Part shown: piece by piece, positions 22,713 to 24,571 of the stretch
Layout of the letters: each line of letters begins with the position of its first letter
Position numbering within the stretch: position 1 is the first letter of the stretch
Source: Diploschistes diacapsis
Lineage: Eukaryota
NCBI GenBank assembly: GCA_023645945.1
Contig: JALAIB010000009.1
Location: 1 to 53,715, forward strand
Direction: 5' to 3'
DNA length: 53,715 bases
Made by a program: the position numbers and the translations under genes
The notes under the pieces: generated by a model
Told to the model about the DNA's origin: nothing
Seen by the model: the letters and a program-made list of their open reading frames with translations, nothing else
Databases searched by the model: none

Positions 22713-23840
22713 CTAGGTTTCACCCGAGAAGATGACAAAATGGTCTTGATCGTGGAAATCGTGTTGGTCGAAGTTCACAAAGTCTTCTACGCTGTGCTTG
22801 CCCATGGTGAGGGGTTCGACGTCAAAGTCCACCATTGCGTCAAAGAGACCGTCGGTGGTATTTTCGGACTTGAGTGGGCCGGCTGCGGAAAAGGTGTCCT
22901 CGAAGCCGGTGATAGTGGGCCCAGGCGTGTCCACGGCGGTGCCGAAGAGATCGCCAAAGGTGTTATCGTAATCGTCGCCCGGGACAGGAGAGGACAGGGC
23001 GGTGGACGCTGTGGTGAGGGAGACGGAGATGGAGCTTCGTCGCGACATGGATAGCGAATCCTCGACTCGTGAGCCGGAGCTACCTCGGACTGACACTGCA
23101 GGTCTTCACAACATCGCTGCAGGATGTTGTGTCATATCCGAGGAGACGGCGAAATCTTGGATATCGGTCGCTGGCGACGACGGGGTGGGGGAGGGTGATG
23201 AATCGCGGTGATCGACGCTGTAGGAGCCATCCGATAATGGTGGCGAGGGGATAGAGTGAAAGTGTTCTGCTTCTTGCTTGAATTGCTGTTCGGTGGTTTC
23301 GGGTTCCTTGGGTGATAGGCCGAGTTTAGCCCTCAAGGAAATATTTTCTTCTTGGAGCTCTCGGTTCTTGCTCGCGAGAATGGCGAGTTGTTGCTTGAGA
23401 CGTTGATTTTCCTCCTCGACGACCCCTTTTTGATCTTCAAGGCACTCAACCTCCTTCCTCTTCCTTTCCCGAGACGAGTGAGCGGCCAGCCTGTTGCGGA
23501 TGACACGCTCTATCCGCCGCTGTTCCTTCTCCGCTTCGGTCTTGGCTCGTTTCCTGTTGTGCGTTAACATCAGTTGCGAACAGGGGGTTCGCTCTGTTAA
23601 ATCGTACCTTGGTGGAAGGTTGGTGGTAGGGGTCGGAAGTTGTTGACCCCATGACCTTCGCTTCTTAGTTTGCTTCTCGTCCTTCCCCTCCGTCTGGCTG
23701 GTGGGCGATGTTGGTGTCAACAAAGTGGTCGCTTCTGGCGAGACTGTGTTGTCAAAGTCGAGTGATTCTCGTGTGAAAGTGTTGCTGTAATTCTTGAAGG
23801 CTGCGTCGAGGCTGCCTTGGTTGATGAACTGAGTTGCCAT
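22713..23840 (-). CDS. HAC1: UPR bZIP transcription factor Hac1/HacA. Spliceosomal intron 23607-23554, unconventional intron 23119-23099. About 350 aa spliced, 226 aa unspliced
   Basis: KKRRSWGQQLPTPTTNLPPR/KRAKTEAEKEQRRIERVIRNRLAAHSSRERKR bZIP, then MTQHPA followed by two CTGCAG Ire1-type loops. The spliced frame continues HPAVSVRG into an acidic C-terminus. Confidence 0.95.
23092..23131 (-). other. Ire1 cleavage stem-loops flanking a 21-nt unconventional intron (23119-23099)
   Basis: mRNA CACAACAUC-CUGCAGC-GAUGUUGUG forms a 9-bp stem with a 7-nt loop, followed by GAC-CUGCAGU-GUC. Both loops fit the CNG/CNGN consensus and the CTGCAG copies are 21 nt apart. Confidence 0.92.
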
Positions 23841-23869
23841 GGTAGTTGAAGATCAGTCGAGAGAGCTTG

Positions 23870-23897
23870 TAGGCAGTAGGCAGTAGGCAGTAGGCAG
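23870..23897. repeat. (TAGGCAG)4 tandem repeat in the HAC1 5' leader
   Basis: Four perfect heptamers 30-57 nt upstream of the HAC1 ATG. Confidence 0.9.
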
Positions 23898-24070
23898 CAA
23901 GCGGTAGGCAAAAGTCGGGTAACAATAAATGGTCGCTTGCTGAGAAGGCAGGAGAAAGCTATCGCTCTTTGTGTTTTTTAGCTGCCTAATCGTGTGCGTA
24001 TACCCTTTCGACCTAAGAAGTGGAGCAAGGATTCAAAGGATGCCAGAGCAATAAGGAAGGGAGACGGAAA

Positions 24071-24082
24071 GGCCAGCGTGTC
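24071..24082. promoter_or_regulatory. UPRE-like element upstream of HAC1
   Basis: GGCCAGCGTGTC matches the yeast KAR2 UPRE core GGACAGCGTGTC at 11/12 positions, about 235 bp upstream of the HAC1 ATG. Confidence 0.55.
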
Positions 24083-24571
24083 CTCTTTTTTCAACTATAT
24101 TACATAAGTAATACGGGACACGGGACACGGGATACGAGATCCGAGATCCGACTGCTCGGGATGTTATCCACAAACGGTGTTTGATTGCGCACGTGTTTGT
24201 TGTGTTTTATGCAAAGAATGTGAGCAGTAATGAAAATAAATAATAATAATGATAATGATAATGCAGATGCATAAATCCATACAAGATGTCCTTAGTCTCT
24301 TCGAAGAGCAGAAAAAAAAAGAAAATAAAGTTGGAAACATGGAAAAATGGAGGGTCTTATATCAAGCCTCGAATCGGCTGACCTGCGGCATGGGGCCTTA
24401 ATATTTATTATTATTACATTCCTTGCTCGCCGTGCGCCGCACAGGTTTCTAAATCTGACTCCTGAAAGTGGTGGTCGAACTTTCTCAGGTAAAAGGAGAA
24501 AGATGTGCGAGGACTGCGAAAAGGGGGGGTGTGCGAGCATTGATGGATGATCCAAGGGGTTCTGGGCTGGG

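Follow-up and report, generated by a model that had tools for sequence, protein, structure and literature searches.

The HAC1 messenger of the lichen-forming fungus Diploschistes diacapsis is probably a substrate of Ire1 with an intron of 21 nt that leaves the reading frame unchanged and holds the stop codon of the unspliced frame, an arrangement which would have come about in two steps. The gene lies on the minus strand of a stretch of 53,715 nucleotides, referred to here as the window. Diploschistes belongs to the order Ostropales and the family Graphidaceae (NCBI taxonomy).

Judged by its encoded protein, the locus is the HAC1/HacA orthologue of this organism, i.e., its UPR transcription factor gene. 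The product features the Pfam domains bZIP_1 (37.1 bits, cut-off 27.6) and bZIP_2 (33.8 bits, cut-off 22.3), and a protein search retrieved 379 relatives at E <= 0.001, including proteins named 'transcriptional activator HAC1' and 'bZIP transcription factor HacA', with which it has the motif SWGQ.LPTP.TNLPPRKRAKTE in common. The original prediction had named the gene HAC1, and both the domains and the names of the relatives bear this out. The coding region consists of three exons (Table 1). The motif SWGQQLPTPTTNLPP(R) at the end of exon 1 is kept in the models of Thelotrema (P0127) and Gomphillus (P0010) as well as in canonical HacA models, and removal of the conventional 54-nt intron restores the junction ...NLPPRKRAKTE... 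found in the same models. Prokaryote-style ORF callers read through this intron (P0001, P0003, P0004) because it is in frame and free of stops. The public model of 210 aa (P0002) uses another conventional intron, which deletes 16 conserved residues (SWGQQLPTPTTNLPPR) at 23554-23840, and lacks the entire C-terminal exon. Upstream of the gene (23841-24340, minus strand) there are short tandem repeats, with CTGCCTA repeated directly in front of the ATG, as well as runs of CCCGTGT and of ATT/ATC; four ATGs in this region open ORFs of 58, 38, 21 and 1 codons.

Table 1. Positions in the window of the coding parts of HAC1 and of its putative Ire1 intron.
Feature	Positions	Strand	Description and basis
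Coding exon 1	23608..23840	-	ATG 23840-23838; 3' end is the conserved ...SWGQQLPTPTTNLPP(R) motif
Conventional GT..AG intron, 54 nt	23554..23607	-	In frame, stop-free
Coding exon 2	23120..23553	-	bZIP basic region, leucine zipper and linker to ...MTQHP(A); Pfam, HAC1/HacA relatives
Whole Hac1/Xbp1 intron RNA element	23079..23147	-	RF04247 match, fold
8-bp exon-exon 'zipper'	23143-23136 with 23090-23083	-	RF04247 alignment, constrained fold
5' hairpin	23107..23131	-	9-bp stem 23131-23123/23115-23107, 7-nt loop CUGCAGC 23122-23116; Rfam alignment, constrained fold
Predicted Ire1-excised intron, 21 nt	23099..23119	-	CUG|CAG cuts in two 7-nt loops, after each G
TGA of the unspliced frame	23106..23108	-	Inside the 21 nt; frame reads ...HPAAML-TGA
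3' hairpin	23092..23104	-	3-bp stem 23104-23102/23094-23092, 7-nt loop CUGCAGU 23101-23095; Rfam alignment, constrained fold
Coding exon 3	22713..23098	-	127-aa acidic tail (VSVRG...SGET) and TAG; translation, tail alignments

The hexamer CTGCAG is found on the minus strand at 23117-23122 and again at 23096-23101, i.e., with a spacing of 21 nt. Single copies of the hexamer are not enriched (24 in the window, 19 expected), while a pair at exactly 21 nt occurs once against an expectation of 0.01 in 100 shuffles. Both this spacing and the in-frame stop at its reported place, within the 21 nt, had been described in the original prediction and were reproduced. The U and G of the TGA take part in the final two base pairs of the stem of the 5' hairpin, and its A is the first base of the spacer between the hairpins. 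This spacer comprises 2 nt, the A of the TGA and an extra A at 23105. Downstream, the ORF at 22713-23105 is in the same frame as the upstream HAC1 ORF, and, as the frames read, exon 3 is reachable only after loss of the 21 nt. Its 127 aa include 22 D+E and 6 K+R, in agreement with the acidic exon in the same frame that had been foreseen. Translation from the ATG at 23840 with the 54-nt intron removed likewise returned the two expected products, 226 aa for the unspliced message and 350 aa with the 21 nt deleted.

The loops had been interpreted as Ire1-type, and the Rfam model that represents the Hac1/Xbp1 intron of non-canonical type (RF04247) agrees with this, as it matches over its full length (positions 1-72 of 72) at 43.9 bits and an E-value of 6e-07, above its gathering score of 41. 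All features of this family are present, including the two 7-nt C-N-G|C-N-G loops, their closing stems and the pairing of the flanking exons. When applied to 14 other fungal HAC1 loci, the model passed nine, at 43.3-58.5 bits, so the value for the window falls within the canonical scores, near their lower limit. The five failures included all three 26-nt loci tested; since these score below the gathering score, the model under-detects longer spacers. The twin-hairpin fold with both 7-nt loops kept open has -26.9 kcal/mol compared with -28.3 for the free minimum, a gap of 1.4 kcal/mol, and the corresponding gap in twelve canonical loci is 0.5-4.3 kcal/mol. In the free minimum the palindromic CUGCAG loops pair with each other instead of forming twin hairpins, which is the same in the canonical loci. 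The sole structural difference is the spacer, with AA in the window versus a single C or U in introns of the 20-nt type and more nucleotides in the 23- and 26-nt types.

For comparison, 80 HAC1 loci of other fungi were taken from a metagenome scan, whose relatives, all of the canonical kind, do not exceed about 48% identity across the whole match. Twin loops were recognised by rule in 71 of these, 65 with an intron of 20 nt, five with 26 nt and one with 23 nt. A slightly laxer rule added two loci of 20 nt (L044, L045), which results in 73 scored loci: 67 with 20 nt, five with 26 nt (L003, L024, L027, L029, L030) and one with 23 nt (L047). All of these lengths are of the form 3n+2. An intron length divisible by three was found in 0 of 73 loci, and neither was a stop within the intron (0 of 73). 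The prior statement that the short introns of moulds act by frameshift is thereby supported. The surveyed loci are not independent, because many represent the same species seen repeatedly; the 71 loci scored by the first rule comprise 30 distinct sequences, of which 26 have 20 nt, three 26 nt and one 23 nt. Seven loci were left unscored. One of them is cut in the 5' loop (L028) and one has no recognisable 3' site (L058), and five others (L036, L055, L069, L073, L078) show no twin loops by the rule and have matches that cover part of the query only. L058 contains a stretch resembling the 5' site (..CATCATGCGAAGATGTTGTG.., 2860-2950) with no recognisable 3' loop within 60 nt; in this HAC1-like locus the intron may be long, or the lineage may be of yeast type. 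A pattern scan for the TGA-type intron in bacterial and archaeal genome contigs gave two chance bacterial matches.

The closest relatives suggest that the stop is older than the 21-nt spacing. All nine of the closest ORFs (P0003-P0010, P0013) end in ...HPA[A/E]ML, and by this end Thelotrema, Gomphillus and six to seven other relatives are carriers of the stop. P0010 is the protein of Gomphillus americanus, and P0005 clusters at 90% identity with a protein of Thelotrema lepadinum. Like Diploschistes, both genera are members of the Graphidaceae (NCBI taxonomy). The models of other Ostropomycetidae (Xylographa, Schaereria, Circinaria, Loxospora, Bachmanniomyces) continue with ...LCGLQ or ...LCDL, which is canonical. 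Moreover, the tail ORF of one relative (P0123) starts M-RPAVSV. This start points to a spacing of 20 nt, in which a GTG inside ..TTGTGA.. directly precedes RPAVSV as a start codon, whereas the window arrangement has TGA in this place. P0123 and P0006, the latter ending in ...HPAAML, are linked only by contigs of equal size (23,514 bases). Taken together as one relative, they are most simply read as a TGA combined with 20-nt spacing, although the M-RPAVSV start may also result from a spacing of 23 nt or, in a contrived arrangement, of 24 nt. The stop is thus probably shared across the Graphidaceae and earlier than the extra A. As it is family-wide and one relative seems to keep the 20-nt spacing, the change would not have happened in one step. 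Besides, the nine closest ORFs have the basic region ..KTEAEKEQRRIERVIRNRLAAHSSRERKRKEVE.., where other Pezizomycotina (P0011, P0012, P0018-P0048) have ..KTEDEKEQRRIERVLRNRQAAQSSRERKRQEVE.., and these changes adjoin DNA-contacting residues of the bZIP domain.

The tail encoded by exon 3 corresponds to what is known from canonical genes. Every canonical locus has a spliced-frame tail that begins with VSV, VSI or VSA and carries a motif of the F..D..VDFD type; the tail in the window features VSV and F..D..VDFD, and the canonical cuts at the window site recreate the canonical HPA|VSV junction. An exhaustive profile-free search identified four homologues of the tail; a search among proteins of similar length added one relative, and a search among longer proteins none. 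Identity amounts to 52-68% across five tails of Graphidaceae (Thelotrema, Gomphillus and three other relatives) and to 47% for the more distant P0125, and the C-terminal block ...DFVNFDQHD.HDQDHF.IFS is well kept among the homologues. A tblastn search of the 80 loci with the tail yielded one match (L017, frame offset 2). Since the tail is too diverged for tblastn, the frames of these loci were translated directly. The tail ORF stays open in those Graphidaceae relatives which carry the stop. It is conserved, open and without a start of its own, and the only route to its translation is removal of the stop, which argues that the tail is expressed.

These observations also bear on whether the locus is merely decaying, with a stop that truncated the gene for good, an element that is no longer spliced and a downstream ORF that is a relic. 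The RF04247 score, just 2.9 bits over the threshold, would agree with such a loss, and so would the variants of the tail, whose pattern is not clearly selective: among Diploschistes-like contigs six are synonymous and seven non-synonymous at 13 distinct sites, weak evidence for purifying selection. Decay is nevertheless unlikely given a tail ORF that is open and 52-68% identical across genera of Graphidaceae all carrying the stop. Furthermore, the element is intact in its two loops, its two stems and its zipper, and even a contig diverged by 4.4% shows no difference in 23096-23122.

If the element is functional, Ire1 might still use a different register or a different 3' site, so that a piece of some other length than 21 nt would be removed and a frameshift would persist. 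The exact cut is indeed unreadable from DNA when CTGCAG flanks both ends, an ambiguity remarked for other filamentous fungi as well (in excerpts of PMC4488935). Whichever register within the repeated hexamer is used, however, the loss is 21 nt and the product is unchanged. Regarding other sites, the covariance model aligns both loops canonically, and only the 21-nt join yields the conserved HPA|VSV junction together with the homologous tail frame. A different excised length is therefore regarded as very improbable.

A bypass of the stop by a spliceosomal intron has to be considered as well. In the annotation of Thelotrema (P0127) the stop is bridged by an invented GT..AG intron, which joins ...HPAEM to FSISVSL..., and an equivalent GT..AG pair is present in the window (GTGAAG...CGAAG, 23109-23035), where it would span 75 nt in frame. 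Gene predictors choose any GT..AG pair that extends an ORF. Such an intron would cost the tail its conserved VSV... beginning and take no account of an Ire1 element that is conserved throughout; moreover, its donor, read by eye, is without the usual G at +5. There is accordingly hardly any probability left for this bypass. In Gomphillus, the annotation splits HAC1 into two neighbouring genes, 002679 and 002678 (P0010, P0124).

The 21-nt spacing depends on the second A at 23105-23106, and four DNA runs (X1-X4) were compared with this site. X1 is identical to the window and the probable source run. X2, from another study, contributes a contig of 439 nt at depth 84 that spans 23031-23469 with four mismatches and 0 gaps, and X4, from a third study, one of 295 nt that spans 22992-23286 with 13 mismatches (about 95.6% identity) and 0 gaps, with no listed difference within 23096-23122. 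Both contigs bridge the AA without an indel, and the spacing of 21 nt is present in at least two independent samples, one of them diverged by about 4%. From the rock metagenome X3, a Diploschistes-like contig of 749 nt was left out of the count because it ends at 23119 and leaves the site unbridged. A separate unitig of X3 (47 nt, 23088-23135) lacks one base at 23106 and has two mismatches. Its depth is 26 as opposed to 6.1 for the Diploschistes-like contig, and it probably derives from another lichen fungus with a canonical 20-nt intron, e.g., a lecanoromycete of the L004 type. A two-base homopolymer in a metagenome-assembled genome and the X3 unitig short of one base might suggest that the second A arose from faulty sequencing or assembly and that the true intron measures 20 nt. 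This is scarcely credible, as two contigs from two other studies cross the site with 0 gaps, and the unitig carries two mismatches to the window and differs in depth from the Diploschistes-like contig of its own run.

Based on the DNA anatomy, the match to the RNA model, the 21-nt spacing and the comparative pattern, we infer excision by Ire1, ligation and stress dependence. The two 7-nt loops with their CUG|CAG sites, held together by the exon-exon zipper, would form the Ire1 substrate. The unspliced mRNA would be translated into the 226-aa protein, which has the bZIP domain and is without the activation tail. Under ER stress, cleavage of the two loops by Ire1 and joining of the exons by tRNA ligase would delete the stop and fuse the acidic tail of 127 aa in the same frame; the resulting form of 350 aa would share the HPA|VSV junction of other fungi.

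The order of the two mutations is conditional to the same degree. In the first step, a TGY in the inter-hairpin spacer would have changed to TGA in an ancestor of the Graphidaceae, and this would have removed the long alternative-frame tail which other Pezizomycotina encode in the unspliced mRNA. With the stop already upstream, the length of the intron is without coding consequence and affects neither product. In the second step, an insertion of one base, the second A, would have been fixed in the Diploschistes lineage. Among the surveyed loci, the alternative-frame tail of the unspliced mRNA comprises 158-270 aa in 48 of 50 distinct tails. In the window, the frame which unspliced mRNA of canonical fungi uses (QCQS..., 22787-23131, minus strand) is still open for 103 codons past the 3' cut and no longer reachable. 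It is shorter than those 48 of 50 canonical tails, and its best hydrophobic stretch of 19 aa reaches 1.08 versus a canonical median of 1.55. Shortness and low hydrophobicity are consistent with a decay of this frame after the stop arose.

Compared with hacA/hac1/hac-1 of moulds, the Diploschistes gene is alike in most respects: it is the orthologous bZIP gene and has twin 7-nt loops with CUG|CAG sites, a 5' stem of 9 bp, the zipper, the HPA|VSV junction and an acidic tail. According to excerpts of PMC13703316, the introns of Aspergillus, Trichophyton and Trichoderma have 20 nt and those of Neurospora and Myceliophthora 23 nt, and Aspergillus features a long conserved tail in the unspliced frame. 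The 23-nt intron of Neurospora is accompanied by a change of frame (excerpts of PMC4488935), and introns of 19-22 nt are given for some Candida species (excerpts of PMC6222058). The introns of moulds are of 3n+2 length, act by frameshift and are linked to a long unspliced tail, whereas in Diploschistes the length is 3n and the stop lies inside. The Diploschistes spacer has 2 nt versus 1 nt in the 20-nt type of moulds, and the unspliced protein ends four codons past the 5' cut. Introns of the frameshift type are 19-29 nt long and not divisible by three; in Diploschistes the length is 21 nt and the frame is the same on both sides.

The unspliced frame of HAC1 in Saccharomyces cerevisiae stops inside the intron. 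This intron has a length of 252 nt (excerpts of PMC6222058 and PMC4488935), and a stop of the unspliced frame inside the HAC1 intron is also given for Kluyveromyces lactis (excerpts of PMC6116095). The likeness of S. cerevisiae and Diploschistes consists in an intron of 3n length, a stop within it and a C-terminus that is swapped or extended without a frameshift. The intron of S. cerevisiae is, however, twelve times longer than the 21 nt of Diploschistes and, by base-pairing with the 5' UTR, prevents translation. In the window, the pairing of an assumed 500-nt 5' leader with the intron region amounted to -22.4 kcal/mol, whereas shuffled sequences averaged -25.2 and equalled or surpassed it in 255 of 300 cases. 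Of the yeast-like logic with a minimal intron that had been proposed, the stop in the intron stands, while a yeast-type pairing between 5' leader and intron was not found. The metazoan XBP1 resembles Diploschistes in its short Ire1 intron, twin hairpins and RNA zipper. It works by frameshift, and its unspliced product, XBP1u, has a functional C-terminal region, whereas no alternative-frame tail would be made in Diploschistes. The intron of XBP1 measures 26 nt (excerpts of PMC8558229), and its twin hairpins and RNA zipper are described in excerpts of PMC4687415.

In the literature searched, no report was found of a short Ire1 intron of 3n length, with the main survey (Hooks and Griffiths-Jones, 2011), which may list one, lying outside this search, and nothing relevant was found on HAC1 in lichens. 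An in-frame short Ire1 intron thus appears to be new and modest in scope, with a mechanism that is itself textbook, and priority is not firmly claimed. If the reading is true, Diploschistes would provide the first case of a short Ire1 intron with a length divisible by three; none of the lengths so far described (19, 20, 22, 23, 26 and 29 nt) is of this kind, and neither is any of the 73 surveyed here. It would also represent a natural experiment, according to which the periodicity of 20, 23 and 26 nt is set by coding and not by the geometry of Ire1 or the ligase. Given the in-frame case of 21 nt, the rule that short introns are not divisible by three would be imposed by coding and would cease to hold as soon as the unspliced frame terminates within the intron, and the spacer between the hairpins would tolerate 2 nt. 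In practical terms, public annotations truncate HAC1 (Diploschistes, 210 aa), split it (Gomphillus) or bridge its stop (Thelotrema), and for this reason annotation pipelines need a step for Ire1 introns.

For the family as a whole, there is a somewhat better than even chance that the Graphidaceae gave up the HacA-u tail by means of the spacer stop, which would have freed the intron length from 3n+2, and that Diploschistes then fixed 21 nt. Whether the HacA-u tail has a function is an open question raised in a review (excerpts of PMC13703316), and a family of fungi in which no long HacA-u tail is produced would be relevant to it. If the proposed history is true, the HacA-u tail would be dispensable in this whole family of fungi.
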